Shown: positions 965-23,301, counted from the first letter of the stretch. The stretch is DNA of 64,000 nt from an uncultured Gammaproteobacteria bacterium (GCA_964385285.1 CAYLOJ010000004.1:7736-71735); one strand, 5' to 3'. Numbers and translations: made by a program. The notes: generated by a model from the letters alone, not told the origin.

Positions 965-982
965 CGCCAACAGTATAGCACT

Positions 983-1958: not shown

Positions 1959-1992
1959 GTAGTTTACCTGAAAAAAGGCCTAAAGTCAAGAT

Positions 1993-2949: not shown

Positions 2950-2959
2950 ACGAGCATCT

Positions 2960-5265: not shown

Positions 5266-5268
5266 AGT

Positions 5269-6501: not shown

Positions 6502-6509
6502 AGAACTTA

Positions 6510-7082
6510 TTAGTAGGTATCATCGAATTTAGCCCGATTAGCTCTGGAAGTTTTTTCGACTTCAGCAAAGAGACTTTTGCCTTTACTATCCATCATGCAA
6601 AAGACTGGAAAATTTTTGACTTCTAGTTCCCAGATGGCATCGGTCATGCCAAATTCGGTTTTATATACATTTACAACTTTAGTAATACAGTGAGCATAGT
6701 ACACCGCGGCTCCACCAATGGCTGCACAATAGATACCAATTCCTTTTAGGGCCTGACGTACACCTTCATCCATACCACCTTTTCCCATGATGGCGCGGAT
6801 ATTATATTTTTCAATCAGCTCTGGCGTAAAATGATTGAAGCGTGCACTCGTCGTGGGACCAGCAGCTAAAATTTTAATGGCGCCATCTGGAGCGGTCTCG
6901 TACATTGGACCACAATGGTACAACACTGCATGACGCATCGGTTTAAAATTGTTTTTTAATAACCAACGATGCGCTTTATCACGCGCGGTCATTACGCGCC
7001 CCGAAAAATACACCTCATCACCAGCACGCACCTTCTTGATGATGGCCTCGGTTGGTGGAGTAGTGAGATGTAAGATAGCCAT
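6510..7082 (-). CDS. Class I fumarate hydratase, beta (C-terminal domain) subunit
   Basis: The [23 protein letters not shown] and MGKGGM motifs are typical of the FumB/TtdB C-terminal domain. The start is chosen at the internal Met (MAILHL). Confidence 0.7.
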
Positions 7083-7096
7083 ATAGTAACAACCGA

Positions 7097-7978
7097 CTAT
7101 GGTAATAATAAAGTTGCACGACGCATACTCCAACAGCCAATCGACACCCCCACAAACCAAGAGGCGGGGTGCACATAGCGCGTCGTTAATTTCACGGCCA
7201 ACGCAGTTGTCTTTCCACCTACTCCCATCGGTCCGATATCGAGCGCATTAATTTTTTTCAATAAACGTTTTTCAATGGTCGCTAATTTAGGAATGGGATT
7301 ATGTCCGGTAATCGGTTGCAGATGACGATTTTTGGCACGATAACTTGATTCTTCCATATTGCCACAAACTGCTGCGCCAATAATATACGGTGGGCAACCA
7401 CGGCCTTGGGCTTTAATCACAGCGTCTACAATACATTTCTCAATTCCTTCTAAGTCTCGTTCTGCACCAATCGAACGATCTGGCAATTGATATTGACGTG
7501 AAACATTTTCAGAACCGCCGCCTTTTAATAGAAGTTGGATCTGGGACTGATCCTCAGTTTCCTTAAAATAGATAATGGGATAATTTCCAATCACCTTCCC
7601 TTGAATCACATCAAAAGCATTGGCGCGGAGCGGCACCTCCTTGGTCGCAATCGCGGTAGCCTCTTTGATGATTTTCTTTAAATCTAATTGCGTGTATTTT
7701 CCACTTTGATATTTTACATACAACAAAGGAATACCTGTATCTTGGCATAAGGGACGCGTCTCCGTTTCAGCCATTTCAATATTGGTCAGCATGGTTTTCA
7801 GGACATGCTTAGCGCGAGCGTTGGTTTCTTTGCGCAAACCAGATTTCAATCCGTCTACAACATCTTTAGGAAGATGAGTGACAGCCACGCGATACATCTC
7901 AACAATAGCAGCAATGAGTTCACGCCGCGATGGCTTGTTTCCAGCCAGCGTTAGAATATTTCCGTTGGTAGTAAGCAT
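7097..7978 (-). CDS. Class I fumarate hydratase, alpha (N-terminal domain) subunit
   Basis: CQDTGIPLLYVKYQ is the Fe-S hydro-lyase (FumA/TtdA) signature. The arrangement is two-subunit, archaeal-type. Confidence 0.75.
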   Translation of the reverse strand: MLTTNGNILTLAGNKPSRRELIAAIVEMYRVAVTHLPKDVVDGLKSGLRKETNARAKHVLKTMLTNIEMAETETRPLCQDTGIPLLYVKYQSGKYTQLDLKKIIKEATAIATKEVPLRANAFDVIQGKVIGNYPIIYFKETEDQSQIQLLLKGGGSENVSRQYQLPDRSIGAERDLEGIEKCIVDAVIKAQGRGCPPYIIGAAVCGNMEESSYRAKNRHLQPITGHNPIPKLATIEKRLLKKINALDIGPMGVGGKTTALAVKLTTRYVHPASWFVGVSIGCWSMRRATLLLP

Positions 7979-7980
7979 AG

Positions 7981-10326
7981 TTACAATTTACTGCGCAGTC
8001 CGTTCAGCCAAGCTGCAGCTAAAGCGCCAACCGTGTGTGTGATCACCTCTGTTTTGCCATCCATGATAATGAAATGTTCATCATCACGTACTTTACCAAT
8101 CACGCTCACGGGGACCCCTAAATCGGCAGCGTGACGTTGTACGGCTGGCAACAATTGCGGATCAACCTCAAATAAAAACCCTCCGGTTTCGGTAAATAAT
8201 TTTTGTGTTGCTGTTAGATTCTGTCCAGGAACATCAGCCAAATCGACGCTGATCCCCGTACGTAAATCACCTCGGCCTCCGAAACACATCTCTGCGAGGG
8301 CAGACAGCATACCACCGTCACTAATGTCGTGGCAAGTCTGGATTAATCCTTGTTCGATTAGATTTGTAATGAGAATGATTTCTTGTTCAACCGCCTTATA
8401 ATCGGGCTGCGGAACGTTTGCTCCATACTCATTAAATAGATCATAGAGTACTGAGCCACCTAATTCATTCTTGCGTTCACCAATCAAACACAATACATTC
8501 CCGGGCTGGATCAGATCTGGAGTAATCGCAGTTGTCACATCGGCCAAGCGACCAAAGCATCCCACAATGGCAGATGGATTAATGGCTTGATCTTTAAATT
8601 GGTTGTATAAGGAGACATTACCTGAAACAATTGGAATCGGAGCCTGATCATATCCCTTCACATGCAAGGCTTTGGCCGCTTCCGCTACGCCCCGTACTCC
8701 TTCGGTAAATTCCCACATCTGCTCTGGTTTTTCTGGGTTACCATAGTTCAGACAATCTGTTAAACACCAAGGAGTAGCACCGACTGCTGCAACATTACGC
8801 ATACTCTCTACAACCGCATTCGCGCCTTGCCAATATGGAGAAATTTTGCCGTAACGTGGATTACCATCAACACTTAATGCTACGCCAATTTTAGAACCCT
8901 CCTCAATCAATGGAGCGATCACACCTGCATCAGCCATGCCTGCTTCAATTTCTACTAACCCTTGCACATTTTTATCGTAATGCTCATACACTGGTTTCTT
9001 ACACGCAACCGCTGGATGGGATAGGACTTTCAAAACTACCTCTTCAATATTTGTAACTTCGGTCCAGGCAGGCTCTTTACCATGATACTTTTTTTCTTTG
9101 ACTTCGCGCTCATACCGTAATCCAGCTGTCACTGCTTCAGGGGCAGCATCTAATATTTTCTCTCCTTTATAATAAACGGTGTAATTGCCTTTTTGCACGG
9201 TTCCGACTACAGAGGCTCGGGCACCAAATGAGACGTTCGGGAAATCCCAAGTTTCGTTATAATGTTTCACAATCACTTCAGTAGCTTTTGGAGAGGCGAT
9301 CCACATAAACCGCTCTTGAGTTTCTGCCATTAGAATAACCGCTGGTGATAACCCTTCCATCCCGACATGCACTCGCTCCAAATCAATCTTCGCGCCATAG
9401 CCACCGGCTTCAGCTAATTCTACAGAAGCACATAAAATACCACCGGCTCCAAGATCTTTGAATCCGACTTCGGACATTAAATTTTGTTCTTTTAAAATCC
9501 GGAAGAGATCATAAGTGGCCATTAAAATATGACGCTCTAAGAAGGCGTTAGGTTCTTGCACTGCGCCTTTATTAGCTTCACGATTATCTTCGTTTAATTC
9601 AATTGAGGAAAACGATGCTCCACCAAAACCACTATGATCTGTCGGCTTTCCAATTAAGATGAAGTTGTATCCTTCGGCATTTTCTGGAGCGCGAGAATGG
9701 ATAATATCTTTCATCGGCACAGTGCCCATGACTACAACATTCACTAAACAATTAGTGTTGAAAGATTCGTTAAAAAAAGTATCCCCTGCTAAATTTGGAA
9801 TACCTAATGGATTACCATAACCACCGATACCTGAGATTACATTGTTTGCGATCCACTTAGTCTTGTTTAAATTCAGATCACCAAAGCGCAAGGGATCAGC
9901 CGTGGCCACAACCTTAGCACCCATGCAGACAATATCACGCACTAAGCCGCCAATACCGGTAGCAGCACCTTCGTACGGAACCACTTGCGAAGGATGATTA
10001 TGTGATTCATGGCCGACAACAATACAATAATCCGTATCTCCTACCCGATCGATCCAAACCGCGCCAGCATCTTCACCTGGGCCAACCACGACGTGTGGCC
10101 CTTGAGTGTAAAATTGCGACAAATATTTTCGACTAGAACGATATGAAGTATGTTCACTACCTTCGATACCAAAGGCGATTAACTCCGTGAGTGTCGGTGG
10201 ACGCTTCAAAATTTCAACCTGAACCTTGCGGGCTTCTGCCACGGTTAAATCTACGCGATATTTTGTTAATAACGCCTGTAGATCGTGATCAGATAGTGGG
10301 GCGAGATCAAAGATGGGTTCAGTCAT
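7981..10326 (-). CDS. purL: Phosphoribosylformylglycinamidine synthase subunit PurL
   Basis: 781 aa, VVGHESHNHPS motif, two AIRS-like repeats. Confidence 0.9.
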   Translation of the reverse strand: MTEPIFDLAPLSDHDLQALLTKYRVDLTVAEARKVQVEILKRPPTLTELIAFGIEGSEHTSYRSSRKYLSQFYTQGPHVVVGPGEDAGAVWIDRVGDTDYCIVVGHESHNHPSQVVPYEGAATGIGGLVRDIVCMGAKVVATADPLRFGDLNLNKTKWIANNVISGIGGYGNPLGIPNLAGDTFFNESFNTNCLVNVVVMGTVPMKDIIHSRAPENAEGYNFILIGKPTDHSGFGGASFSSIELNEDNREANKGAVQEPNAFLERHILMATYDLFRILKEQNLMSEVGFKDLGAGGILCASVELAEAGGYGAKIDLERVHVGMEGLSPAVILMAETQERFMWIASPKATEVIVKHYNETWDFPNVSFGARASVVGTVQKGNYTVYYKGEKILDAAPEAVTAGLRYEREVKEKKYHGKEPAWTEVTNIEEVVLKVLSHPAVACKKPVYEHYDKNVQGLVEIEAGMADAGVIAPLIEEGSKIGVALSVDGNPRYGKISPYWQGANAVVESMRNVAAVGATPWCLTDCLNYGNPEKPEQMWEFTEGVRGVAEAAKALHVKGYDQAPIPIVSGNVSLYNQFKDQAINPSAIVGCFGRLADVTTAITPDLIQPGNVLCLIGERKNELGGSVLYDLFNEYGANVPQPDYKAVEQEIILITNLIEQGLIQTCHDISDGGMLSALAEMCFGGRGDLRTGISVDLADVPGQNLTATQKLFTETGGFLFEVDPQLLPAVQRHAADLGVPVSVIGKVRDDEHFIIMDGKTEVITHTVGALAAAWLNGLRSKL

Positions 10327-10346
10327 GGTAACTAATGGGTACCAAA

Positions 10347-11660
10347 TTATGGAATTTGAATTGTAGATTTACGCTCTGCACCAACGGACACAAGACTAAT
10401 TGGAGTTTCCACTTGGTCTTCAATGAATTTCATATATTCTTTCATGCGACTCGGTAATGCCTTGTAACCATTGTTCACAATAGTGACAAAATCTGCATCC
10501 GTCAGATTTTTCCAACCCGATATCTCTTTGTAAACTGGCTTGCAGTGGCGACTGAGTTCTAGGTCGGCTGGTAATTCAGTAATATAGGAATTTTTGTACT
10601 TATATTTCACAGCCACCGGAATTTTTTTCAAACCACCAAGCACATCAATTTTCGTCATGGCCATACTTGTTAACCCATTGATGCGTGAAGAGTAGCGTAG
10701 TTGCACTAAATCTACCCAACCACAACGCCGTGGACGACCAGTAGTGGTGCCATATTCTTGACCACGTTCCCGCAGATAATCTCCCATTGGGCCTTTAGCC
10801 TCAGTAGGAACAGGGCCGGAACCAACACGTGATAAATATGCTTTGACCACACCAATAATCTCATCAATTTTGGTAGGACCAATACCCACACCTGGGCAAA
10901 CTGCTCCAGCGATGGTATTCGATGAGGTGGTATGTGGGTAGGCACCATGATCGTTATCTAACAAAGTACCTTGGGCACCTTCAAACAAAATACTTTTACC
11001 AGCTTTCAACGCCTGATTCACCTCTAGTGATACATCACCAATATAGGGCTTCATGCGTTGGCCATATTTGTAATAGGTGTTGAAGATCGCTTCCTTATTT
11101 AGGGTAATTTTTTGTCGATAGAGTTTCTGTAAAGTATTTTTCTTCAATTCATACAGCTGATCAAATTTCTCCTTGAAGATTTTCTTGTTCAATAAATCTA
11201 CGATGCGAATACCAAAACGTTCTGCCTTATCAGCATAGGCTGGTCCAATTCCGCGACGTGTGGTGCCGGCACCGAGCGTACCCTTGTACTCATCAATCAT
11301 CCCGTCCATTAAAATATGGAATGGAAAGATTACGTGAGCGCGTTCTGAGATTAATAAGTTCAGTTTTTGACCCTTAGTTTCAAAATTATCAAGCTCTGAT
11401 AATAATACCTCGGGATCGATGACCATGCCGTTCCCCATCACAATCCGCTTCTTTGGATACAAAACGCCAGAGGGCAAAAGATGCAATTTGTGTACAACAC
11501 CATCCACCACAACCGTATGACCTGCGTTATTTCCACCTTGAAAACGCACCACGTAATCCACTGTGGGTGCTAAGTAGTCGATAATTTTACCTTTACCCTC
11601 GTCACCCCATTGGGCGCCGACGATCATGATGGCTTTGGCTTTGGGAACGCGTTTGGACAT
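10347..11660 (-). CDS. purA: Adenylosuccinate synthetase
   Basis: GAQWGDEGKGKIIDYL P-loop and GIGPAYADK motif. The start is chosen at MSKRVPKAK. Confidence 0.9.
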   Translation of the reverse strand: MSKRVPKAKAIMIVGAQWGDEGKGKIIDYLAPTVDYVVRFQGGNNAGHTVVVDGVVHKLHLLPSGVLYPKKRIVMGNGMVIDPEVLLSELDNFETKGQKLNLLISERAHVIFPFHILMDGMIDEYKGTLGAGTTRRGIGPAYADKAERFGIRIVDLLNKKIFKEKFDQLYELKKNTLQKLYRQKITLNKEAIFNTYYKYGQRMKPYIGDVSLEVNQALKAGKSILFEGAQGTLLDNDHGAYPHTTSSNTIAGAVCPGVGIGPTKIDEIIGVVKAYLSRVGSGPVPTEAKGPMGDYLRERGQEYGTTTGRPRRCGWVDLVQLRYSSRINGLTSMAMTKIDVLGGLKKIPVAVKYKYKNSYITELPADLELSRHCKPVYKEISGWKNLTDADFVTIVNNGYKALPSRMKEYMKFIEDQVETPISLVSVGAERKSTIQIP

Positions 11661-11698
11661 AATATTCTTAGAGACGCACAGCAATGCGCCTTTACAAG

Positions 11699-12550
11699 TT
11701 ATTCTTTAGATTTTTTAAGCGCACATTTGACCGTGTTTTCAATCAATTTAGCGACGGTCAAGCGGCCAACCCCACCTGGTGGGGGAGTGACTATACTACC
11801 CTGTTTAGATACAGAAGTAAAATCAATATCGCCATACATTTTGTTATCCACGAAAGAAACTCCTGCATCTACAACCACAGCTCCTCGCTTGATCATTTTA
11901 CCAGTCAGTACACCATGTACACCTACACCTGTAATCACGACATCAGCAGTTTTTGTGTAAGCCGATAGCTGCTTCGTGGAACGATTTAAAATGGAGACTG
12001 TTGCCTCTTCATGCATTAACATGTTGGCTAATGGGCGCCCCACTAAACTACCTGCTCCAATTAATACTACATTAGCTCCTTTTAAAGTGACTTGATGATA
12101 ACGCAAAATTTCAAGAATCGCACCTGGTGTTGGCGGTTCAATCCAATAACTGCCAGTCACTAATTTACCTAAATTGGTTTGAGTTAAACAATCCACATCG
12201 ATACTCGGTGCAATACTCTCTAAGACTTTACCTGTATTCACTTGCTTTGGTAGTGGTAATTGCACAATCAAACCGGTCAAACCGTGTTTGGGTTGTTGTA
12301 ACTGCTCTAACTCCGTAATGAGATCTTTGGTACTAATTCGGCTTGGTAGGTGCACCAACACAAAATCAACGCCACAGGCAGCGGCGGCCTCACCTTTCTT
12401 ACGCACATAGGTTTGCGAAGGCTTATGATTGCCTACCAGAACTACTCCTAGCTTTGGGGTAAATCCACCTTTGACTAAGGCTGGCACCTGTTTTTTGAGG
12501 CGCTTATAGATGCTACTGGCGATAGTGTGTCCGCTAACAATGGTGGTCAT
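11699..12550 (-). CDS. folD: Bifunctional methylenetetrahydrofolate dehydrogenase/cyclohydrolase
   Basis: GVVLVGNHKPSQTYVRKK...GRSLVGRPLANML...TPPPGGVG are FolD signatures. Confidence 0.85.
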   Translation of the reverse strand: MTTIVSGHTIASSIYKRLKKQVPALVKGGFTPKLGVVLVGNHKPSQTYVRKKGEAAAACGVDFVLVHLPSRISTKDLITELEQLQQPKHGLTGLIVQLPLPKQVNTGKVLESIAPSIDVDCLTQTNLGKLVTGSYWIEPPTPGAILEILRYHQVTLKGANVVLIGAGSLVGRPLANMLMHEEATVSILNRSTKQLSAYTKTADVVITGVGVHGVLTGKMIKRGAVVVDAGVSFVDNKMYGDIDFTSVSKQGSIVTPPPGGVGRLTVAKLIENTVKCALKKSKE

Positions 12551-12577: not shown

Positions 12578-12602
12578 TAAAAAAATCCCCGGTTTCGGGG
12601 AT
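12578..12602 (-). terminator. Rho-independent terminator ending the island transcript before folD
   Basis: Stem atccccg/cggggat with loop gttt at 12585-12602. It is preceded on the + strand by an A7 run, which is a T-run after the stem on the minus strand. Confidence 0.55.
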
Positions 12603-12745
12603 GAATATCCTCATTTATATATATCACGCTCCAGGAGCACCGTCAAGCAGGCTCGTCAGGCTTAAATGGGGATTCAATGCTGGATAGCAATTCTTCAAAT
12701 TTGATAGGTATATTCCGTAAAAGTATATTTGTATAATTGTGCGGG

Positions 12746-14158
12746 TCAGCTTGTATGATTATGCTCATAAACCTGATTCTGCAAATAGAGGCAATTCCAT
12801 AAATTAAAACTTAAGAACTTACAAAACTCATTAATAAACATCTTGTCTTCGATCGTATAATTCTTGTGATTAATGCGGTCACTTAAGCAGAGCAAAGAGA
12901 TTAATTGATTATTATAGATGATGGGAAATATATTTTGGCAATGAAAATGATTTTTGACAGTTTGACTGACAAAGAAATTACTTTTCTGAAACTCCATGAA
13001 CCATCCTTCATCTTCTGCTATCTTGGAACGATTATGTGGGTAAACAGACTGAAAACTTCCGATATGTTTGTTATAGGTATAAATTGCTATGAATTCGACA
13101 GGCATTCTAGTCATGAAATGATCAACTGCTAAACGTACAAAAGCGTCTAGAGTGGGTATAGAATCAAGAATTTTCTGCTCATCAGCAGTAAGTTCATATA
13201 AATCAACTTGGGTTTGTGGAATGAAATAATGCACAACAATTTCTGCACATTTTTTAATAGGCCAAAATAAAATCAACATCACTGAGGAAAGTATTAATAA
13301 TATCAAGAAATAATTAGTAAATTGTGATACTAGAAGAAAATACAATATGATCACTATAATGATCTCTACCAGGAAACATAGGCAAATCAACAAGGCAAAT
13401 CTTCGAATATGATAGCGAATGCTGAAAATGCGATAACGTAATATAGCATAGGCAATAACGGCAGAAATAATACTTACACAAATTCCGCTTACAACTTGGG
13501 GTATGGATACAGCCAAAACTTCACTATGCGAATAACCTGCCCAAAATGTTTTTGCAATCAAAGGAATAACGACGTTTGCAGAAACAGCAATGAGGGTATT
13601 TAAACCGAAAGCAAATACTAATAGCTTGGCCTGCTCCTTTTTACGACCTATCGAGCGCATATACCCAAATGCCAACAGGATTATTAGAAGTGTTAATTGA
13701 AATAGTACTGCCGTGTACAATGGAATAGTGAAGCGAGCATTAGCTAGATAGAATAAGCTTGATTCTGAATCATAAATTTTTTCACCAACAATAAACTCTG
13801 GTATGTATGACATAACTACAAAAAAGGTCGTAATGATCAGTGTAATCCTTATGTGAAACGCTTTAAGATATTGCCTATCAAAAAAAATCCACAACAGCCA
13901 CAAAGTAGTAAACATGCCAGCAACCCCAAAGGCAAATGTTGATGCATTAAAGAAAAAATTAAATAGTGCGCCACGCTGTATAAAGAACGAAATGTACATG
14001 ACAATTTCCCATCCAATACTAAAAAACAGATTCACTAAATATATCTTTACTACTGGTGAGTGTAGATGGCGACTATTATTATAAAACCAAACCCCGACTG
14101 CTAGATCAAAGGCTACGCTGGCTAAAAATGTATATTGCATTAATGAGACCAATTCCAT
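12746..14158 (-). CDS. Polytopic membrane protein (~9 predicted TM helices) with a ~170-aa C-terminal cytoplasmic domain (possibly GAF-like/sensor). AT-rich.
   Basis: Repeated hydrophobic 20-aa segments across the first ~300 aa. AAGGAAG SD 7 nt upstream. GC clearly lower than its neighbours. Confidence 0.6.
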   Translation of the reverse strand: MELVSLMQYTFLASVAFDLAVGVWFYNNSRHLHSPVVKIYLVNLFFSIGWEIVMYISFFIQRGALFNFFFNASTFAFGVAGMFTTLWLLWIFFDRQYLKAFHIRITLIITTFFVVMSYIPEFIVGEKIYDSESSLFYLANARFTIPLYTAVLFQLTLLIILLAFGYMRSIGRKKEQAKLLVFAFGLNTLIAVSANVVIPLIAKTFWAGYSHSEVLAVSIPQVVSGICVSIISAVIAYAILRYRIFSIRYHIRRFALLICLCFLVEIIIVIILYFLLVSQFTNYFLILLILSSVMLILFWPIKKCAEIVVHYFIPQTQVDLYELTADEQKILDSIPTLDAFVRLAVDHFMTRMPVEFIAIYTYNKHIGSFQSVYPHNRSKIAEDEGWFMEFQKSNFFVSQTVKNHFHCQNIFPIIYNNQLISLLCLSDRINHKNYTIEDKMFINEFCKFLSFNLWNCLYLQNQVYEHNHTS

Positions 14159-14276
14159 CCTACTTCCTTACCATAATCTCAGTATCCCAGCAAGTAATTA
14201 CATATTCTGGCAAATTCTGATCTTGCCAAAATAAATAAGCCACTGTGGCGGCCTATTTATTGGACTTAAAACTAAG

Positions 14277-14507
14277 TTATTGCACTTCCACCTGAGTATC
14301 AACCGTTTTTTCGGTGATCTCTACCGTGGTCTCTGAAACAGCGTTGATGATTGTCTCATCTTGAACAATACCTTGGTAATCAGCACTATCTGATAGTGAT
14401 TGTATGGGTGACCCATCCATCAACATGATGATATTGACCAATAGCGCAACCGATAATCCCGCCACAACTACCGCGATCACAGTCAGGGTAGTCAGCGAAC
14501 GTTTAAC
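14277..14507 (-). CDS. Small single-pass membrane protein (start chosen at MVKRSL)
   Basis: N-terminal hydrophobic helix LTTLTVIAVVVAGLSVALLVNIIMLM followed by an acidic tail. Confidence 0.35.
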   Translation of the reverse strand, partial: VKRSLTTLTVIAVVVAGLSVALLVNIIMLMDGSPIQSLSDSADYQGIVQDETIINAVSETTVEITEKTVDTQVEVQ

Positions 14508-14514
14508 CATAAAA

Positions 14515-15480
14515 TTAGTGAGCAATTGTCGTTACAGTATTCGTACCAGTACAGACACCTTCTACACCGCTGGTTGGAATAGCAATATTCCAGAAGAGCG
14601 ATTTGGTTAGAGGTGCGCCATCATTGGTGCGATAACCAATGTTGATATCCGTATCAGCCGGTGTGCCTGATAACGCAACCGCAGAACCATCCGAGTAACC
14701 TACATCTGTTAGCACCCATTTTTGATTTGCTACCGGAATAGCCCCTGCCACAGTGCACCCCATCGGACCTGCTGACGATACTTCAACATCAGCCTCATCA
14801 TTACCATATTGCTGTAAATCCATCTGAACATTATTAGCATTGGTGGTTGTTTGCCCTAAGGACAAAGAGCCGTATGGGATTGTACCAGGGATGGATAAAG
14901 CCAACCGCGTTTCCACTTCTTTATGTAATGAGTTGTTGGTGGCATTGGCTGCATCATTATCTGTAACTTTGACACTGACTACCCAATCTTCAGCGGACGC
15001 GACCCCTCCTGTCGATGTCGAATCTGTGTAGAATTGCAAAGCAACTGGGCAGTTATAATCTACTTGATCACCCGTTGAACCGTTCACAGTAGTACAGGAG
15101 ACAGCATAACAACCGTTGTTATCCGGAGTACAGCCTGCAGTGAGTGATGAACGATATAACACTGCTGCTACTGAGGTAATATCTGTTCGGCCATTCAGAT
15201 CTTCAGCAGTTCCAGTAATCTTATACATAGCGGTGCCACCAGCAATGAGTGATAAGGTACCACCCGCTCCACCTGTATTATCACTTTGTGTATAATCTGC
15301 ACCGGTCGTCACAAACACATCCACAATGCTTGGAACAGCATTCGCAATTGTGGCTGAAGTACTCGAACTATCGGCCTGAGAATTTAAGATCACAATCGCA
15401 GCGACCATCGAAACGCCAATAACGACTAGCGCTGCTCCTAATATCCAATGTGTAAAACTAATTGATTTTTTTTCTGCCAT
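14515..15480 (-). CDS. Secreted/surface protein, family A (Thr/Ser/Gly-rich, conserved CxxDNNxCY motif)
   Basis: N-terminal signal-anchor MAEKKSISFTHWILGAALVVIGV. It shares CTPDNNGCY, W..VKVTD.DA and a C-terminal SGVEGVC block with the 18538..19854 protein. Confidence 0.55.
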   Translation of the reverse strand: MAEKKSISFTHWILGAALVVIGVSMVAAIVILNSQADSSSTSATIANAVPSIVDVFVTTGADYTQSDNTGGAGGTLSLIAGGTAMYKITGTAEDLNGRTDITSVAAVLYRSSLTAGCTPDNNGCYAVSCTTVNGSTGDQVDYNCPVALQFYTDSTSTGGVASAEDWVVSVKVTDNDAANATNNSLHKEVETRLALSIPGTIPYGSLSLGQTTTNANNVQMDLQQYGNDEADVEVSSAGPMGCTVAGAIPVANQKWVLTDVGYSDGSAVALSGTPADTDINIGYRTNDGAPLTKSLFWNIAIPTSGVEGVCTGTNTVTTIAH

Positions 15481-15487
15481 ATCTTTC

Positions 15488-16744
15488 TTAATTAGTAATT
15501 GTATTAGAAGATAATTTTCGTTTTTTACGTACAACCATCATCACGATTATGATGGCAATCACACTGACAATGACAATGGCGATGATCGAGATCATGAGCG
15601 GTGTTAAAAATGTATCCGGCTTAAGTACTGTAAATGTCGTTGAAACTGCTTCCGTTTTTTTATTCGCATATTCGACGGACAGTTCAATTCGGTAATTTCC
15701 GGCTTCCGCAAATTGAAAAAAGTGGGAAAAGGTGGTCGTCTCGCCAGCATCCACAACTAATTCTTCACCGCGCAGATAATCGACTAAAGAATCATCCTTA
15801 TAAATATCTGCCAACAAAATACCTGTAATACGTGTGTCACCGGTATTTTCAAATTCCACATCTACCTTGATATTCTCATTCAGCTGATACTCTGCTTTAT
15901 TAGCTTTGACACTGACTACCTGACCAGTCTGAGCCAAGGTATTAGCAGGAAATACATCAAACGGTTGTGAGGTTAATGTCGCGACGGCTTGATCTTTATA
16001 GATAAAGGTAGCCACAGCGATGTATGAACCCTGAGCTAATTCGACCGGAGCAATAAAGGATAATTGATCATTGGTACCAGGTTCAGAATATTCAAGCGTA
16101 TCACCTGCAATTTCTGCAACGAATGTTTTGGCAGAATCTTGTCGATCCGTAAACACTAATTTAATTTGATCAGGACGCCAAGAAACATTGCCATCATTAT
16201 TAATGGTATATTCCATTAATAACTGATCATCTTCTTCAATCGACGCCGCAGACAGATCGGTCACCTGATAGGAGACAATTTCCGAACCACCAATGCCAAA
16301 TTTTACGACCGCAGCTGCTCCCTCCACCACTCGAGAGACTGCAGATGTTTGAGCATCCGTGGCCTCTGTCTCTGCATTCACCGGCGTTTCTGTAAACACA
16401 AAAATCGCCTCATAGTCACCGTTGGCAGCCTGCGCGGAGTTGATTTTAAATGTATAACTATAGTGCGACTCCCCTGCTGGAATCACAAATCCCTCTGGCG
16501 CTTCAACGGCATTCTCATATGGAGTGCGAACGCTGACGGTATAGGCAACATCTTCATTTAGCTGGGATGCTTCTTTGGAGACATCAATCGTCTTAGTTTG
16601 GCTCGAACCACGTAATACGCTGTCGATCTGGACTAATGGAGGAGAGATTCCAATTGCTGCCGCAGAGTGTGCACTCAATACACTTGCACCTAATACAAGA
16701 CTGCAACAAAGCAGTAATGAACGTAAAATCTTTTGATGACTCAT
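15488..16744 (-). CDS. Type I membrane surface protein, family B (signal peptide, mature N-terminus GISP, C-terminal TM anchor plus KKRK tail)
   Basis: Signal peptide MSHQKILRSLLLCCSLVLGASVLSAHSAAA. C-terminal MISIIAIVIVSVIAIIIVMMVVRKKRK. Beta-rich repetitive body. Confidence 0.6.
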   Translation of the reverse strand: MSHQKILRSLLLCCSLVLGASVLSAHSAAAIGISPPLVQIDSVLRGSSQTKTIDVSKEASQLNEDVAYTVSVRTPYENAVEAPEGFVIPAGESHYSYTFKINSAQAANGDYEAIFVFTETPVNAETEATDAQTSAVSRVVEGAAAVVKFGIGGSEIVSYQVTDLSAASIEEDDQLLMEYTINNDGNVSWRPDQIKLVFTDRQDSAKTFVAEIAGDTLEYSEPGTNDQLSFIAPVELAQGSYIAVATFIYKDQAVATLTSQPFDVFPANTLAQTGQVVSVKANKAEYQLNENIKVDVEFENTGDTRITGILLADIYKDDSLVDYLRGEELVVDAGETTTFSHFFQFAEAGNYRIELSVEYANKKTEAVSTTFTVLKPDTFLTPLMISIIAIVIVSVIAIIIVMMVVRKKRKLSSNTITN

Positions 16745-16810
16745 GAATGAAATTTTAGCGCAGTATAAACTTCAAAAAATTATACTATAAACAAGTGGAT
16801 TGGTCAACCA

Positions 16811-17176
16811 TTAATTGCGTAATAATGCAGTGATTATAAGGATCGCGATCACCACACTTAAGATGACAAACTTGAGCTTGAATTTATCTACTTTGCTGGA
16901 ATGCGTGCTGTAGGATACTTCGTAGGAACCATCCGGATTCCTGTGATAGAGTTTCTCAAAACTCTCCCCTTTATCATACAGCAACATCGCAGCCATCTGT
17001 TTTGGATTTTCAGTGATGATAAAACCATATATAATACTAGCAACCACAAAGCCAATCAAAAATCCCCAAAATAATTCATACTGAACCAGAGAAGTAAAAA
17101 ACAAATCAAGGCTTCTCTCTGAGGCTTGAATGGCAAATACTGCATTATCCATAGCCAGAATCATATCATGTTTCAT
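16811..17176 (-). CDS. Small two-TM membrane protein (uncertain; its start region collides with the signal peptidase start)
   Basis: ORF track. It has two hydrophobic helices. Confidence 0.3.
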   Translation of the reverse strand: MKHDMILAMDNAVFAIQASERSLDLFFTSLVQYELFWGFLIGFVVASIIYGFIITENPKQMAAMLLYDKGESFEKLYHRNPDGSYEVSYSTHSSKVDKFKLKFVILSVVIAILIITALLRN

Positions 17177-17698
17177 AACCTTTACCTATATCTTAAACGC
17201 GTCCTCCAAATTGGTGCGGCCATCGCAATTGCTGTCATTGTGACACGCAATGTATTTATCGATGTTGGCAAGGTAAATGGTAAATCGATGGAGCATACAT
17301 ATCTGGATCAAACCCTATTTCTTGTGAATCGCATTGGTCTACTCGTGCATGAACCACGGCGCGGCGATGTGGTGCAATTTTTTGATCCACATCCACAAAC
17401 CAAAGAATTACTGATCAAGCGTGTCATTGGTTTGCCGGGTGAACGGGTAAAAATTTCACAAAATGTTGTCTCTATTCTTAGTGCAGACGGAACAGAAGTT
17501 CTACTAGACGAACCGTATTTAGATACTGATACGACTACACAGACTGCCTCACATGATACCGTTATTTTTCCAGTCATCCCTGAACACAGTTTCTTTTTGC
17601 TCGGTGATAATCGAGATGAGAGTGTAGATTCACGCTATTTTGGCGTAATCCATCGATCACTGATTACCGGCAGTCTAATTCCGCTGCCGCAACTGTAA
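17168..17698 (+). CDS. lepB: Type I signal peptidase (LepB-like, catalytic Ser/Lys intact)
   Basis: Box B VNGKSMEHTY (Ser), box D LIKRVIGLPGE (Lys), box E GDNRDESVDSRYFG. N-terminal TM. The start is chosen at MFHNL; the ORF is open from 17126. Confidence 0.75.
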   Translation: MFHNLYLYLKRVLQIGAAIAIAVIVTRNVFIDVGKVNGKSMEHTYLDQTLFLVNRIGLLVHEPRRGDVVQFFDPHPQTKELLIKRVIGLPGERVKISQNVVSILSADGTEVLLDEPYLDTDTTTQTASHDTVIFPVIPEHSFFLLGDNRDESVDSRYFGVIHRSLITGSLIPLPQL

Positions 17699-18535
17699 AT
17701 ACGCGATAAACGCCACTAATAGAATACTTACCACACACAACAGGGTGATGACCCAGGTTTGATTATAAACCATCCATTCGGTTGTCTCCGTGTGACCATT
17801 GAGTTGAATCTCTGCTTGATACCAGGCGATTGTTTTGATCGTTGGCGTCGCTAGTGGAATGCTAAGTCTATTGGCGCCAGGTGCAATCACACTACTCGCA
17901 ACACTATCTGTGGTAGTAATCGTGCGACCATTACGTTTGATGATGACACGATACGGAAGATACTGTATGCCCGATGAATGTGACGAATCGATCTCCACAG
18001 TTTGCTCGACCGCAGCAGCATCAGACTGCACGTATGCAACTGGTAGATGTACCAGGTCGAGATCGGAATAATTGTCTCCCTGCACAGCAGTTTCGTTCGG
18101 AATAGTTAGGGCTGTGTCATGGGTGATCTGTACTGTACTGAGATGAGTAATACCAAATTGCACACTACTGCCTTGATCCGCCTGCACATCTTGTTCTTGT
18201 ACAAACTGTACTTGTATTGGGTATGTACCTACTGGGGAATCGATCGATGTATGGATAGTATAGGTAAACAGATACTCCTGCTCTACTGTAAACTCTGTCT
18301 GTTCAGCATCAATTGTGCAATGGCAATTTTCCGGCACATTAATATGCGTACTATATTGTACGGGTTCAATATTTGTTTGATTGAGCGTAACCGCTTGTGT
18401 AATAGAATCACCAGGTAATACATAGTGTTCAACAACGGAAGGCGCCAGACTCACAATGTCTGCAGCAACCGGTTGAACATTGAAGCAAACCAGCGCCACT
18501 CCTAACCCAACTGCGAGCTGTATTAACTTCTTCAT
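17675..18535 (-). CDS. Type I membrane surface protein, family B (signal peptide plus C-terminal TM anchor plus RQRN tail)
   Basis: Signal peptide MKKLIQLAVGLGVALVCFNVQPVAA and C-terminal VITLLCVVSILLVAFIAYLQLRQRN. Same architecture as 15488..16744 and 21252..22172. Confidence 0.6.
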   Translation of the reverse strand: MKKLIQLAVGLGVALVCFNVQPVAADIVSLAPSVVEHYVLPGDSITQAVTLNQTNIEPVQYSTHINVPENCHCTIDAEQTEFTVEQEYLFTYTIHTSIDSPVGTYPIQVQFVQEQDVQADQGSSVQFGITHLSTVQITHDTALTIPNETAVQGDNYSDLDLVHLPVAYVQSDAAAVEQTVEIDSSHSSGIQYLPYRVIIKRNGRTITTTDSVASSVIAPGANRLSIPLATPTIKTIAWYQAEIQLNGHTETTEWMVYNQTWVITLLCVVSILLVAFIAYLQLRQRN

Positions 18536-18537
18536 AC

Positions 18538-19854
18538 TTAGTCGAGTACGGCAATGTAATAAATGGTGTTGCTACAACTGCCTTCAATCCCAGAATTGGG
18601 TACACGCAATTTTAAATAGGTATCTTTAATGGCCGCAAAGACCTCGCTTGTTCTGGCTACTAATGCCAAATTTACATTCGTATCCGTGTTTGAGAGTGCT
18701 TGGTCCCCTACGCCATAGGTGAATCCATTCGTAAAGGATAGGTGAATATTACTGGTGGGTATGGTTCCACGTGTACAACTAATATCGCCACTGGCGGATT
18801 GAGTCGCATCAATATTACGATTACCCGTGTTCGTAAATGCGAGCGTCTGTTGAGGTGAATCAACGCCGAGCGTTAATGTGCCGTAATTCACAGAAGCACC
18901 GACATCTAAGGCTAACAAACTATTCATTTCAAACGCATCGCTAGAATTTGCAGTGGCCGTAGCATCATCAGTCACTTTGACAAAGTTAGTCCAATTCGTA
19001 GACGCACCTGGAGAACCGGCGTCCGTCGCATCGGCATAATATTGAATCGGAATGACTGCTTCATAATCAATCGTAGTATCAGCACCACCTGAACAATTAC
19101 TGAGTGTAAAGGCAACAGTATTGGTATCCAACTGATAACAATTATTATTATCGGCACTGCAACTTGTACCGCCCGCAACATCACTTTTATATGCCGTGAC
19201 TGCCCATTGCGTTTTTGCGTCAATCTGCGAACAGCCATCGGCATCGGTCGCTGTTCCTCTAATATATAAATTGGTAGTTGAACCATCCGTTAAATTGAAA
19301 GATCCTTGATCACTACCGCCACTCGTTGTCGTTGTGATTACAGAATCCACGGATGGTGTGGCATTCCCACTGCTGCTGGCCGTGGCGCAAATTTTATTCG
19401 TGTAGGCAGCGGCGTCTCCGATATGCGCATTTGTGGTGACCGCAGACATGGAAGCAATGGTTGTATCATACCCTGCACAATTGGTTGCTTGATAACCAAC
19501 TGAAACCGTACCGCTACTTACGGATAAGCAGGCATTATTTGCGTAATTCATTTGTGTTTTCTGCTCGACATGGGCATTCGTGACGTCCGACAATTTTGCA
19601 ATCGTATCATAGGTACCAGAACAAGATGTGCCTAATCCTGCTACACCAGAACAACAGACCAATTGACTGTAATTGGCTTGACTAGCTAATTCAGCATGCG
19701 CATTACTAGTACCTGCCATGCGCAATACTACTGTACCACTAGGGCAACTTGTACCTACTGTGCAAGATAACGTGCCGGCTAGTGCAACCGGTGCGATGCC
19801 GCAGACTGCAATAAGAACCATGCCAACAACAAGAGATCGGTATTTACCAGGCAT
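18538..19854 (-). CDS. Secreted/surface protein, family A (Cys-rich N-terminal extension with three [ST][ST]NAH repeats)
   Basis: Signal peptide MPGKYRSLVVGMVLIAVCGIAPVALA. CSADNNNCY, NWTNFVKVTDDATATAN and a C-terminal SGIEGSC block are homologous to 14515..15480. Confidence 0.55.
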   Translation of the reverse strand: MPGKYRSLVVGMVLIAVCGIAPVALAGTLSCTVGTSCPSGTVVLRMAGTSNAHAELASQANYSQLVCCSGVAGLGTSCSGTYDTIAKLSDVTNAHVEQKTQMNYANNACLSVSSGTVSVGYQATNCAGYDTTIASMSAVTTNAHIGDAAAYTNKICATASSSGNATPSVDSVITTTTSGGSDQGSFNLTDGSTTNLYIRGTATDADGCSQIDAKTQWAVTAYKSDVAGGTSCSADNNNCYQLDTNTVAFTLSNCSGGADTTIDYEAVIPIQYYADATDAGSPGASTNWTNFVKVTDDATATANSSDAFEMNSLLALDVGASVNYGTLTLGVDSPQQTLAFTNTGNRNIDATQSASGDISCTRGTIPTSNIHLSFTNGFTYGVGDQALSNTDTNVNLALVARTSEVFAAIKDTYLKLRVPNSGIEGSCSNTIYYIAVLD

Positions 19855-21175
19855 ATACGCGCACCTCTCCACGGCCACCAGCGCCACCATTGCCACCAGA
19901 TGTTGTGCCGCCACCGCCACCGCCGCCACCTGCACCTAACGCACCATCTCCTCCGATACTACCCGCGCTATCCGTATCTCCACCACCACCGCCGCCAGAA
20001 CCACCACAAGCACCTTTGTTACTGGCTGCACCATTACCACCAACTGCTGATGTGGCACCGCCAATACCGCCAATAGCACCACCACCAGAGGCATAACGAC
20101 CAGTAGTACTACCAGCTCCACCAGCTGTACCGGCGTTGGCTGTTGTTACACCACCACCAGCGCCACCACCAGGACATCCATACATCGATGATCCGCCAGT
20201 ACCGCCCGCTGCAGGTACAGCGGAGCTGCCTGCGCCACCGCCGCCACCCCACTCCGCACCAGCACCTGTTACTCCAATAGCTCCCTGTTGACCTTGACCA
20301 CCGAATGCAGCTGCAGCAGAAGCTCCTGGAGCACCGCCGGAAACTGCAGTCGTTCCTGTACCTGTTATACCTGCGCCAGCAGTACCGCCACCGCCGCCAC
20401 CAACTGAAATATTGGCTGCGATGCCGCCTTCACCGCCACCGCCACCGCCTGCAAAACACAAAGTGCCACCGAATGTCGAGTTTCCACCAGCGCCACCGGC
20501 TGTACCAGAAGCACTACTGCCACCGCCGCCGGCAGTTCCACCAACACCCACATTAACAGATTCTGTTGAACCAAGATCCGCTGCACTAAAGGTGCGTTCA
20601 GTCAGTGCGCCACCGCCGCCGCCGCCACCGCCAATACGTGCAGAGGCTGCCGCTCCACCGTTGCCGCCGCCACCGCCGCCACCGCCGCCAATACAGACTA
20701 CTTTTACAGTCGTAACCCCGGCTGGTTTATTCCAGGTGTTGGCGCCTGTTGCAGTAAAGATTTGGACATCTCCTATCTTTCCCCAAGTACCGTTTCCTTC
20801 CCAAAACGACCCGGCACCCGCATTCGTACCCCCGTTTAAATTATTTACTGATAGATCTCCTGTCACCCCATTTGCCAGATTCACTTGTGACCAGGCAGGA
20901 TTATTGCTACCACCGGTATTGGATAAATAACGGGTGGCGGTAGTATTTTTTGCCAAAGCAACAATGGTGTTCGCCGCGGAACCATATAAGAGATCTCCCT
21001 GAGCAATCGTATTTAAACCTGTACCGCCTTGCGATGGCGTGACCAAAACATCACCAACTTCCGACCACGTATGTCCAGGATTCGGAGCAGCTGCCATCGC
21101 AATTTTAATGACAGAGGTGGCAAGACAAATCAATAAAAAAACGGATAGGATTGGATTAAAATATTTGAGTCTCAT
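19844..21175 (-). CDS. Secreted glycine-rich protein: ~150-aa N-terminal globular domain followed by ~280 aa of poly-Gly/Ala/Thr/Ser tracts
   Basis: Signal peptide MRLKYFNPILSVFLLICLATSVIKIAMA. Runs of G8-G10. Very high local GC from GGN codons. Ends RGEVRVYAW. Confidence 0.55.
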   Translation of the reverse strand: MRLKYFNPILSVFLLICLATSVIKIAMAAAPNPGHTWSEVGDVLVTPSQGGTGLNTIAQGDLLYGSAANTIVALAKNTTATRYLSNTGGSNNPAWSQVNLANGVTGDLSVNNLNGGTNAGAGSFWEGNGTWGKIGDVQIFTATGANTWNKPAGVTTVKVVCIGGGGGGGGGNGGAAASARIGGGGGGGGALTERTFSAADLGSTESVNVGVGGTAGGGGSSASGTAGGAGGNSTFGGTLCFAGGGGGGEGGIAANISVGGGGGGTAGAGITGTGTTAVSGGAPGASAAAAFGGQGQQGAIGVTGAGAEWGGGGGAGSSAVPAAGGTGGSSMYGCPGGGAGGGVTTANAGTAGGAGSTTGRYASGGGAIGGIGGATSAVGGNGAASNKGACGGSGGGGGGDTDSAGSIGGDGALGAGGGGGGGGTTSGGNGGAGGRGEVRVYAW

Positions 21176-21251
21176 TCTTTACTATATATCACGCGCATAG
21201 ACATTAGGCAATTCAAAAAGGATCAGATAGAATATAGGAATTGATAATATT

Positions 21252-22172
21252 ATGAAGCTATTTAAACACTCTCGTCCTGCAATCGTCTCTACTCTCGGAT
21301 TACTACTTTTGGGATGTTGTTTTATTCCACGCGCAAGCTGGGCATTGGGAATTAGTCCGGCTAATCTGGAATATCAACAGATTAAGACGAATTCCATTAT
21401 CCATGGCCAACTCTTGGTTTCCGGCACAAATAGCGTGACTACTGATACGCTCAACATTACGGCTACTGGTGAAGCAGCTGGAGCAATTGAATTGCCAGTG
21501 AATCAGATTACATTAGCTCCGCAAACGACTACACCTATTAACTACTCAATCAATACGGCTGGCTTAGAGCCCGGTAACTACACAGCTGATCTTTCGATCG
21601 TTCAGGCAATATCTGAAAAAAAAGTCGAAGACAATACCTCTGCCGTACAGACTGGAGCCACTGTACATGTACAGTTTTCAGTAACCACTGAAGATATTCA
21701 TCAATTATCTATTGATGGTGTCGAACTACGCACTACTGAGCAACCGATCACTCTGCAGTATCGATTGATTAATGGAGGGAATGTGAGCGATCGACCACTC
21801 AGTGCGACCTTGGCCATACAGAATCTCTCCACACACGAATCAAGACTCCTGACGATTGATGATCTATCATGGGTTGATCCATTTAACTCAATATCAGCCA
21901 ACATTCAATTACCCAGCAATCTCTCTGGTGGCAATTACGCCATCAGCGTTCAATTTACGAGTAATGATGGTGAGACTCTCTACACAAGCAGTGAACAACA
22001 CTTTCAGATTCCACTGACCTGGTACGAAACCATCACCCGAGCCAGTACAGCTCACCCCGTCACTGGGTTCATGATCACATTGGGTTGTTTACTCATCAGT
22101 GGTGCTGGCTTTTGGCTATATCAGAAGCGCGCACGCAGCACGTCCACAAAGTCAGCCAAGCACTCTGCTTGA
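21252..22172 (+). CDS. Type I membrane surface protein, family B (signal peptide, mature N-terminus LGISP, C-terminal TM anchor plus KRAR tail)
   Basis: Signal peptide ...IPRASWA / LGISPANLEYQQ. C-terminal FMITLGCLLISGAGFWLYQKRAR. Ig-like repetitive body. Confidence 0.6.
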   Translation: MKLFKHSRPAIVSTLGLLLLGCCFIPRASWALGISPANLEYQQIKTNSIIHGQLLVSGTNSVTTDTLNITATGEAAGAIELPVNQITLAPQTTTPINYSINTAGLEPGNYTADLSIVQAISEKKVEDNTSAVQTGATVHVQFSVTTEDIHQLSIDGVELRTTEQPITLQYRLINGGNVSDRPLSATLAIQNLSTHESRLLTIDDLSWVDPFNSISANIQLPSNLSGGNYAISVQFTSNDGETLYTSSEQHFQIPLTWYETITRASTAHPVTGFMITLGCLLISGAGFWLYQKRARSTSTKSAKHSA

Positions 22173-22197
22173 CATCGTTGTAAAAAGTGAGTACAAT
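22169..22197 (+). promoter_or_regulatory. Sigma-70-type promoter for guaB (TTGACA-17-TACAAT), near-leaderless
   Basis: TTGACA at 22169-22174, a 17-nt spacer, TACAAT at 22192-22197. The ATG at 22210 is only 12 nt after the -10 box, and no SD is present. Confidence 0.5.
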
Positions 22198-22209
22198 TCT
22201 TTTTAATAT

Positions 22210-23301
22210 ATGGCCGACATTTTAGATTTCCCTTTAGCCCTAACATTTGATGATGTTTTGCTGATTCCTCAAAAATCAGAGGTTTTGCCGCGCGATGTTA
22301 GCTTGCGCACAAAATTGACCAAATCCCTGTATTTAGAAATTCCACTATTATCGTCGCCCATGGATACCGTAACCGAAGCCTCTATGGCTATTGCCATGGG
22401 TAAAGAAGGTGGCCTGGGTATTTTGCATAAGAACATGGATGAGGACCAGCAAGTAGCAGAGGTCAAAAAGGTTAAACAAGCGGGTTTCTTGGCAGGCGCT
22501 GCGGTCAGCGTAGGTGAAAAAGCGATGCGTCGCGCTGAAGCGTTGATTGCTGCGCGCGTCGATGTTTTGGTGGTAGATAGCGCACATGGCCATTCTAAAG
22601 GAGTCATTGATATGGTGGCCTATTTGAAAAAAACCTATCCTACTATTCAGGTGATTGGTGGTAACGTCGCTACTCCAGAGGCCACAAAAGATCTGATCAA
22701 AGCAGGGGCAGATGCAGTTAAGGTAGGAATTGGTCCTGGTTCAATTTGTACGACTCGTATTGTGGCCGGTATCGGCGTTCCACAGCTCACGGCTATTATG
22801 ATGTGCGCAAAAGAAGCTAAGAAATCTGGTGTACCGATTATTGCCGATGGTGGCATCCGTTATTCTGGTGATATTGTGAAAGCGTTAGCGGCTGGTGCAA
22901 GCGCAGTGATGATGGGTGGTGTGCTAGCTGGTACTGATGAGGCTCCGGGTGAAGTAGTAGAAGACAAGGGTACTAAAATGAAGGTATATCGCGGAATGGG
23001 CTCACTGGAAGCAATGGAACGTGGTAGTAAAGATCGTTACTTACAAGAATCTGTAACCGAAGCTAAGAAACTGGTACCAGAAGGAATTGTTGGAAAAATT
23101 AAGTACAAAGGCCCTGTTGATACGGTCGTTTACCAGTTATTAGGTGGTTTGCGAGCTGGTTTAGGTTATTGTGGAGCCGAAACCATTGAAGAACTACACA
23201 AACGTGCCAAATTTGTCCGGATTACCAATGCTGGTATCCGCGAAAGCCATCCGCATAGTCTTTCCTACATTGCCGACGCTCCCAACTATACTTTAAATTA
23301 A
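22210..23301 (+). CDS. guaB: IMP dehydrogenase, short form lacking the CBS (Bateman) subdomain
   Basis: [13 protein letters not shown]...[11 protein letters not shown]...[20 protein letters not shown] are IMPDH signatures. The sequence runs from the SSPMDTVTE block into the second barrel half with no CBS pair. 363 aa. Confidence 0.85.

Follow-up and report, generated by a model that had tools for sequence, protein, structure and literature searches.

The window analysed here is a 64,000-nucleotide (nt) stretch of DNA attributed to an uncultured Gammaproteobacteria bacterium (GCA_964385285.1 CAYLOJ010000004.1:7736-71735), and our subject is a block of ten open reading frames (ORFs p1–p10) at 12.6–22.2 kb that codes for two paired families of exported proteins, A and B, together with a type I signal peptidase (SPase) and small membrane proteins. 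In our judgement there is an even chance that this block is one copy of a module, widespread in the Candidate Phyla Radiation (CPR/Patescibacteria), that assembles, without covalent bonds, a protein complex on the outside of the cell membrane. We read it as a CPR analogue, and perhaps a distant homologue, of the WxL type of non-covalent display at the surface, equipped with a signal peptidase of its own. The function we infer is that of a candidate host-attachment apparatus.

An earlier note on this DNA had described the block as a lineage-specific island inserted among purine genes. That description was not supported: an exhaustive hidden Markov model (HMM) search recovered 1931 family B representatives (50%-identity clusters) at E≤1e-3, the A+B pair recurs in at least nine named CPR groups, and the block has no tRNA, integrase or meaningful flanking repeat and is of native guanine-plus-cytosine (GC) content for most genes. 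The block appears to be native, conserved equipment and shows no sign of a recent insertion. The gene inventory in the note was recovered: all ten ORFs are present where it had placed them, as are the two family A proteins with a CxxDNNxCY motif, an intact LepB-type signal peptidase, a Gly-rich secreted protein, a minus-strand terminator at 12585–12602, a guaB promoter overlapping the last stop codon, and three family B proteins with a signal peptide and a C-terminal transmembrane (TM) segment, of which p4 and p10 are clear and p7 is a divergent member by profile. It is a coherent set of surface genes, as had been proposed, and none of its members scores above the curated cut-off of any well-known family of surface proteins.

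Families A and B across the CPR

The alignment of family A was scanned as a degenerate pattern over one genome per GTDB species, giving 20 loci, and exact-protein look-ups added eight more, for a total of 28 (L001–L028) that were compared by ORF calling, BLAST and HMM searches; L022–L025 are further A-seeded loci and L026–L028 are B-seeded. Genes of the two families are adjacent at 20 of the 22 A-seeded places formed by the window and L001–L021, at all four of L022–L025 and at all three of L026–L028; without the window, this is 26 of the 28 related loci. The most frequent gene content is a pair of A genes (one for a protein of ~310 amino acids [aa], one for a larger protein) with a single B gene; in L003 as many as six small-A paralogues stand in tandem. 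The pair recurs in Uhrbacteria, Magasanikbacteria, Saccharibacteria, Dojkabacteria, Shapirobacteria, Paceibacterota, Gracilibacteria, Kerfeldbacteria and Taylorbacteria; Parcubacteria are also among the named sources of homologues, and every named homologue is of CPR/Patescibacteria origin. Two loci, L012 and L014, come from metagenome-assembled genomes labelled Gammaproteobacteria/Pseudomonadales yet carry CPR-type A genes, L012 also having B, p5 and SPase genes, and these labels are probably binning or labelling errors.

The SPase gene is present in a large subgroup consisting of Uhrbacteria, Magasanikbacteria and relatives (L003, L007, L010, L012, L013, L019, L020, L022–L026 and L028), with a homologue of p5 beside it at each of these loci except L020; L027 has p5 without an adjacent SPase gene. 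The full gene order–A-large, short B, SPase (on the other strand), p5, B, A-small, and a TM peptide of ~80 aa–is common to the window and L023, and part of it is seen in L003, L022, L024–L026 and L028. In L003 and L023, relatives of p7 are found at the same position and overlap the SPase gene convergently in the same way; the protein encoded there in L022 has 286 aa and a like architecture, and B proteins are also encoded immediately upstream of the SPase gene in L026 and L028.

The spacing of these genes is kept as well as their order. In the window, the convergent p7 and p6 genes overlap by 24 nt at their 3′ ends, and the short-B/SPase overlap is 22–46 nt across the window, L003, L022, L023 and L026; in L028 the genes only abut. 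The start codons of p5 and p6 are divergent and, if p5 begins at 17152, ~15 nt apart, a spacing that recurs in distant CPR lineages. Since both this spacing and the 3′ overlaps recur, the promoters must lie within neighbouring coding sequence.

The surroundings differ from those in the window. No folD, guaB or purA was found by BLAST within 10 kb at L001–L021, or among the called genes of L022–L028, and the flanks of related loci include a resistance-nodulation-division (RND) pump and an extracytoplasmic function (ECF) sigma factor, serine hydroxymethyltransferase and histidine kinases, or 5-enolpyruvylshikimate-3-phosphate (EPSP) synthase and ribosomal genes. At Saccharibacteria-type loci the B gene is directly followed by genes for a dockerin protein and for a cohesin protein with a TM anchor. 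In L001 (5277–7343) a Dockerin_1 match of 32.9 bits (cut-off 22.9) follows A-A-B; L006 (4796–8268) has a Cohesin match of 32.2 bits (cut-off 24.1) and a Dockerin_1 match of 18.7, under the cut-off of 22.9; and L015 (11932–14756) and L016 (13590–16686) have, at the same position, genes that fall by BLAST into the same two families (F7 and F5), the Pfam scan of these four loci covering L001 and L006. These dockerin and cohesin neighbours point to modular non-covalent surface assembly.

The two family A proteins of the window, p3 and p8, are 31% identical across 295 residues (E 3e-29), the CxxDNNxCY motif included; its D, C and Y are invariant in a seven-sequence alignment. The part that they share, the A-core, is ~270 residues long, and its C-terminal strand, G-[TS]-x-[TS]-G-T-x-T-[FIV]-T-A, contains no Trp. 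The signal peptides have cleavage sites (slash) NSQA/D in p3 and ALA/G in p8, and an NxxP is conserved just past the site in the family. An AlphaFold2 (AF2) model of p3 from a 53-sequence alignment (predicted local distance difference test [pLDDT] 94, predicted template modelling score [pTM] 0.80) has an N-terminal hydrophobic helix, corresponding to the signal peptide, and two beta-sandwich domains; this model and that of p4, below, are monomers. None of the 53 family A members has a Pfam match at E≤1, and none matches the WxL models, PF13731 included, even at that level. No sequence relatives of family A were found in the PDB, fold searches with the models returned generic immunoglobulin (Ig)-like, carbohydrate-binding module (CBM) and PapD-like matches only, and no TasA, camelysin or pilin structure is among the listed fold matches to family A. 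A and B are unrelated to each other, hhalign giving no alignment between them.

The A-core is C-terminal in nearly all of the large A proteins, which are 417–2190 aa long, and what precedes it varies. In p8 it occupies residues 171–464 of a 465-aa ORF, behind a Cys-rich domain of ~150 residues with three TNAH repeats; L001 also has a TNAH domain, a Laminin_G_3/ConA-like lectin domain is found in L014 and L020, Gly_rich_2 in L008, and Fib_succ_major in the protein P0153. The TNAH domain of p8 (19386–19780) is far more conserved than the A-core, being 57–72% identical in most of 120 CPR proteins listed, which otherwise differ in having other C-terminal domains, dockerin plus Big_6, or Laminin_G_3. 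No Pfam or PDB match was found to it or to its homologues. The C-termini of TNAH homologues that end in '...GTYTGTLTYTATANP' were considered as WxL domains, for which no profile gave support.

Family B is represented by p4, p7 and p10. The p4 and p10 proteins are related by BLASTP (E 3e-5), and a family B profile of 103 sequences matches p4 at 8e-139, p10 at 2e-56, and p7 at 7e-10 over p7 residues 3–137. No pairwise BLAST similarity of p7 to the other B proteins was found, and its sole Pfam match is weak and below threshold (E 0.03); because it matches the profile and has the common architecture of a signal peptide followed by a C-terminal TM segment, p7 is, on sequence grounds, a divergent member of the family. 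Cleavage sites are AAA/IGISP in p4, VAA/D in p7 and SWA/LGISP in p10, and the mature N-terminus of the family has a conserved motif, A/xG[IV]SP. The AF2 model of p4, built with 103 sequences, has a pLDDT of 93.6; in it the signal peptide is followed by three Ig-like domains and then by a long TM helix at the C-terminus. Foldseek with the B model matches multi-Ig proteins, and the third domain has CARDB/DUF7507 matches in Pfam. The short B proteins also give a marginal signal with WxLIP_HBD (PF11797, DUF3324): p10 scores 23.8 bits, under the cut-off of 28.9, and the short-B protein of L028, with which p10 aligns (E 4e-4), scores 30.7 bits (E 3.4e-7), over the same cut-off.

The signal peptidase, p5, and the small or peripheral genes

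The signal peptidase gene product p6 matches PF10502 (6e-34) and scores 115.3 bits with TIGR02227, against a cut-off of 47. The catalytic boxes are intact–the Ser box SMEHT, the Lys box KRVIGLPGE, and box E GDNRDESVDSR (GDNRxxSxDSR)–and the Ser, the Lys and box E are kept in all 12 cluster-linked SPases aligned. Judged from its sequence, p6 is a bona fide type I S26 enzyme with its catalytic residues in place.

The smaller genes p2 and p5, and also p1, have no family matches in Pfam, NCBIfam or PHROG. A p2-like gene (75–81 aa, with an S-V-x-V...V-T-V C-terminal pattern) follows small A in L022, L023 and L025–L028, and L024 has an 80-aa gene at the p2 position; this likeness is one of position and architecture, the pairwise similarity not being significant. 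Three genes, p1, p9 and p10, are outside the conserved core, and no counterparts of them were found at the related loci. There are no relatives of p1 in loci L001–L025, and its membership of the system is uncertain. A polytopic Wzy_C (O-antigen-ligase-like) protein is encoded between two A genes in L010 (7890–10016) and beside the cluster in L026 (14263–16497), and may be a glycosylation partner; p1 was considered as this protein and rejected, having no match to Wzy_C.

The Gly-rich protein p9 has a signal peptide (AMA/AAPNPGH) and a PF21722 Gly_rich_2 domain (28.2 bits, cut-off 24.3), and no sequence relatives in the PDB. It also matches a tail-fibre family, PHROG 863 (8.8e-15), which was rejected as a sign of a prophage, nothing else in the block being phage-like. 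One protein of L008 (12135–14099) fuses Gly_rich_2 (residues 62–265) to an A-core (residues 305–654), a Rosetta-stone link that ties p9 to family A, and a 'PNPGH' protein is encoded ahead of the large A gene in L001.

Organization of the window

The features of the block are collected in Table 1. The starts of p3 (15480), p6 (17168) and p8 (19854) were set by exactly matching NCBI-called products. The hairpin at the left edge, upstream of folD, closes a minus-strand transcript p4-p3-p2-(p1), and the guaB promoter-like site is the right boundary and lies outside the system.

Table 1. Features of the p1–p10 block, numbered from the first nucleotide of the window
Feature	Position	Strand	Description
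Intrinsic-terminator-like hairpin and T-run	12585..12602	-	7-pair stem with 5 GC pairs, then TTTTTTAT
p1	12746..14158	-	470-aa polytopic membrane protein, ~9 TM segments, ~150-aa soluble C-terminal domain
p2	14277..14525	-	82 aa, N-terminal TM anchor, exposed Ser/Thr/Val/acidic tail of ~45 residues
p3	14515..15480	-	Small form of family A, 321 aa, A-core alone behind a signal peptide
p4	15488..16744	-	Family B long form, 418 aa, three Ig-like domains, C-terminal TM, basic tail
Promoter-like site upstream of p4	16779..16807	-	TTGACC-17-TATAAT, 11/12 matches; consensus match only
p5	16811..17176	-	113–121 aa, two TM segments, divergent from signal peptidase gene
p6	17168..17698	+	Type I signal peptidase (S26, LepB/P-type), 176 aa
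p7	17675..18535	-	Short divergent family B, 286 aa, signal peptide, Ig-like region, C-terminal TM
p8	18538..19854	-	Family A large form, 438 aa, Cys-rich TNAH N-terminal domain, C-terminal A-core
p9	19844..21175	-	Secreted Gly-rich protein, 443 aa, signal peptide and Gly_rich_2 domain
p10	21252..22172	+ (guaB strand)	Short family B, 306 aa, two Ig-like domains, C-terminal TM
guaB promoter-like site	22169..22197	+	TTGACA-17-TACAAT; overlaps p10 stop codon

The flanking genes were identified by Pfam as purA (PF00709, 8.7e-170), folD (PF02882/PF00763) and guaB (PF00478, 2.2e-154). The region 1–12.5 kb had been taken to be entirely purine and folate metabolism; this stands for purA and folD, but genes for malic enzyme and fumarase are also there. 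Positions 1–12550 hold a near-complete purine-synthesis run (phosphoribosylaminoimidazole-succinocarboxamide [SAICAR] synthetase, parts of formylglycinamidine ribonucleotide [FGAM] synthase, aminoimidazole ribonucleotide [AIR] synthetase, and purA) with folD. Purine-synthesis capacity is usually missing from CPR bacteria. The guaB gene (22210–23301) codes for just 363 aa, and since its match to IMP dehydrogenase is one continuous stretch (residues 10–349) it lacks the CBS subdomain insert. Further to the right, at 39268–40254, there is a 1-kb patch of GC 0.58 in which a 314-aa Asp/Thr/Ser-rich ORF (minus strand) overlaps a 318-aa ORF (plus strand).

The core genes have GC contents of 0.42–0.46, and the window average is 0.446; the outliers are p1 (0.34), p5 (0.38) and p9 (0.56, from its Gly codons). 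The 64 kb hold no tRNA genes, and ORF reading and Pfam show no integrase, transposase or recombinase among the ORFs of the block. A 12-mer, TATATATCACGC, occurs in the 64 kb at only two places, 12618–12629, just outside p1, and 21183–21194, just upstream of the p9 start. The pair extends to 19 nt at 84% identity, no longer than numerous pairs that arise by chance in this region, and at least two matches are seen in 6 of 100 shuffles; the repeat was judged to be at chance level and rejected as an island border, and the 12-mer could be a shared promoter element.

No close relative of the window was confirmed in single-protein scans of metagenome contigs with folD and p3. All of the window proteins checked are singleton clusters, from one NCBI contig of 90 kb, and exact-sequence look-ups matched nothing, so that the collections contain no close relative of the source species; the best relatives of p3 are 54–60% identical.

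Proposed mechanism and comparison with known surface systems

In the mechanism that we propose, Sec would export p3, p4, p7, p8, p9 and p10, in which A-x-A-type cleavage sites are seen, and p6 would cleave these six products, an enzyme–substrate pairing suggested by the conserved linkage. Family B proteins are predicted from the model to be held in the membrane by the C-terminal helix with the Ig-like stalk pointing outward. Family A proteins, soluble once cleaved, would dock through the A-core on B, p2 or the wall; we propose the A-core as the docking module because of the strict A–B adjacency and because the A-core is constant on otherwise variable proteins. The large A proteins would display their variable N-terminal payloads (three TNAH repeats here; ConA-like lectin or Gly-rich domains elsewhere), which may bind a host cell or polysaccharide given the lectin-type domains and the CPR lifestyle, and p5, with its two TM segments, would be a conserved membrane partner. 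All cultivated CPR/Patescibacteria are attached to host cells, and the molecules for recognition and attachment, type IV pili apart, are largely unknown (PMC11623550, PMC6744442).

Several observations weigh against a WxL-like display system with its own peptidase. Csc/WxL clusters have no counterpart of the signal peptidase or of p5, a pair whose nearest analogues are TasA/SipW and the haloarchaeal tafi. WxLIP_HBD is matched by only one of the 103 long-B members, and that below threshold, and there is no match to DUF916/WxLIP_PGBD (PF06030) in p4, p7, p10 or the 103 B members. The 64 kb contain no S26 gene besides p6, and the cluster SPase may be the housekeeping enzyme of the cell; the loci of Saccharibacteria, Dojkabacteria, Shapirobacteria and Gracilibacteria, moreover, lack the SPase gene.

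A more far-reaching proposal, which we consider possible but put forward tentatively, is that A, B, the small peptide, p5 and SPase form an undescribed CPR-wide apparatus, either an ancient sister of Firmicute WxL or an independent invention, in which the docked A proteins, with their lectin-like, TNAH or Gly-rich payloads, are the adhesins that let ultra-small episymbionts recognise and hold host cells, and the peptidase makes a required N-terminus. No description of this module was found in the literature searched, the coverage of which is incomplete and hence no proof of novelty.

Among the alternatives, it is unlikely that the block codes for a signal-peptidase-dependent fibre, a thin pilus or fimbria built chiefly of small A and tipped with large A adhesins, which would polymerise by strand exchange after cleavage on a membrane base of B or p2. 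Such a fibre would be akin to those of TasA-SipW-TapA (Bacillus) and tafi, where the peptidase gene likewise lies among presumed secreted beta-sandwich substrates, and it would suit the conserved residues past the cleavage sites in both families, the tandem small-A paralogues of L003, and the persistent linkage, with overlapping gene ends, of the peptidase gene and its secreted neighbours. SipW, though, is an endoplasmic reticulum/archaeal-type signal peptidase, whereas p6 is of the single-domain bacterial Ser/Lys LepB type. In tafi of Haloarcula the clustered peptidase TafD is needed for TafA processing and fibres, and its deletion blocks both, but TafD is described with a catalytic Ser/His/Arg (PMC11821415), and the bacterial P-type p6 has Ser/Lys. 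The B profile does match the TasA N-terminus (5of1/8aur), but weakly (E ~0.01, not significant) and in the wrong family, no TasA, camelysin or pilin being among the listed fold matches to A; nor does the module have TasA/camelysin (peptidase M73) or DUF1102 homology in Pfam. It has, besides, a TM-anchored Ig-like partner that sets it apart from these systems, the monomer models of A and B are complete high-confidence sandwiches with no strand missing, lectin-bearing large A proteins of up to 2190 aa suit surface-docked adhesins better than polymer subunits, and the peptidase is missing from many loci.

We regard as more doubtful still a two-component S-layer-like coat, with B as stalk and A as canopy in the manner of SlaB/SlaA of Sulfolobales, and a peptidase that is there because these are the most abundant secreted products. 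The B model is indeed stalk-like with a C-terminal TM helix, A is secreted and beta-sandwich, the pair is spread across the CPR, and SlaA/SlaB likewise have adjacent genes for a membrane-anchored stalk and a secreted beta-rich partner. The module proteins are much smaller, however, mature A-small having merely ~280 residues; several divergent A paralogues per locus with variable payloads point to diversification of binding and not to a uniform lattice; SlaA/SlaB are matched neither in sequence nor specifically in fold, and the fold matches to S-layer proteins do not stand out from the hundreds of others to Ig-like structures.

Very improbable, and then for the p1/p9/p10 fringe alone, is a horizontally acquired, lineage-specific island of unrelated surface genes with the SPase inside by chance: the block does split purine/folate genes in the window, p1 is AT-rich, the 12-mer is restricted to 12618 and 21183, and p1, p9 and p10 are missing from related loci, but with no tRNA, integrase or transposase, a chance-sized repeat, native GC in the core genes, and order and gene overlaps that are kept in distant CPR lineages, unlike a chance assortment, this explanation is largely refuted for the core.

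Returning to the proposed non-covalent display module, the likeness to cohesin–dockerin (cellulosome-type) assembly is limited to the neighbours described above, the dockerin that follows A-A-B in L001 and L006 and the cohesin of L006; the window has neither cohesin nor dockerin, and the A-core and B are unrelated to them.

The closest parallel is with the Csc/WxL clusters, described in lactobacilli, enterococci and Listeria as having four parts, CscA–CscD (PMC1534035). CscA has a signal peptide, a DUF916 domain and a C-terminal TM segment and is present once per cluster; CscB is small and essentially a single WxL domain; CscC is large, with a C-terminal WxL domain behind N-terminal binding domains, most clearly ConA-like lectins; and CscD is a tiny LPxTG peptide with 40–60 exposed, unconserved residues (PMC1534035). 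CscA is now known as WxLIP, with two tandem Ig-like domains and a TM helix, and is proposed to hold WxL proteins at the surface; the commonest WxL cluster has a single WxLIP along with two WxL proteins (PMC10599100).

The module corresponds to this part by part. Every product has a Sec signal peptide. Family B resembles CscA/WxLIP in having a signal peptide, Ig-like domains in tandem, and one C-terminal TM segment with a basic tail, and A-small and A-large resemble CscB and CscC, with a shared C-terminal domain behind variable binders, a likeness of architecture only. The very small anchored peptide p2, with ~45 exposed and poorly conserved residues, resembles CscD, and two shared-domain proteins with one anchor are the commonest content in both systems. 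The analogy with WxL/DUF916-DUF3324 loci drawn in the earlier note therefore holds in architecture, with the marginal WxLIP_HBD signal of p10 and the short-B protein of L028 as an additional link.

The differences are equally clear. The A-core has ~270 residues in two sandwiches, whereas the WxL domain has 130–190 residues with two Trp-x-Leu motifs, and the A-core has neither these motifs nor a PF13731 match; B lacks the DUF916/PGBD domain (NQIDKxxxYFDLK), and its long form has three domains; and p2 is anchored through an N-terminal TM segment, not through LPxTG and sortase. The C-termini of all ten products, when read, contain no LPXTG, and there is no sortase Pfam match in the block, so that the absence of LPXTG and WxL motifs reported in the note stands. 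The hosts of Csc/WxL are Firmicutes (Lactobacillales, Listeria and the Bacillus cereus group), and those of the module are CPR. Since the WxL motifs, PF13731 and DUF916 are all missing, the module does not belong to the WxL family; its design is that of the WxL system, and B may be remotely homologous to WxLIP. The suggestion made in the note of a distinct cell-surface system is supported.

The module is one of few multi-gene surface systems conserved over many CPR classes, with a family A that has no Pfam model and ~1900 family B representatives (50%-identity clusters), and the variable binding domains of the large A proteins are of the kind expected of host-range determinants. The parallel with WxL/Csc offers a concrete, testable model, in which the A-core docks on B, and gives a means of asking if such a design for surface display goes far back in monoderm bacteria or has arisen twice.

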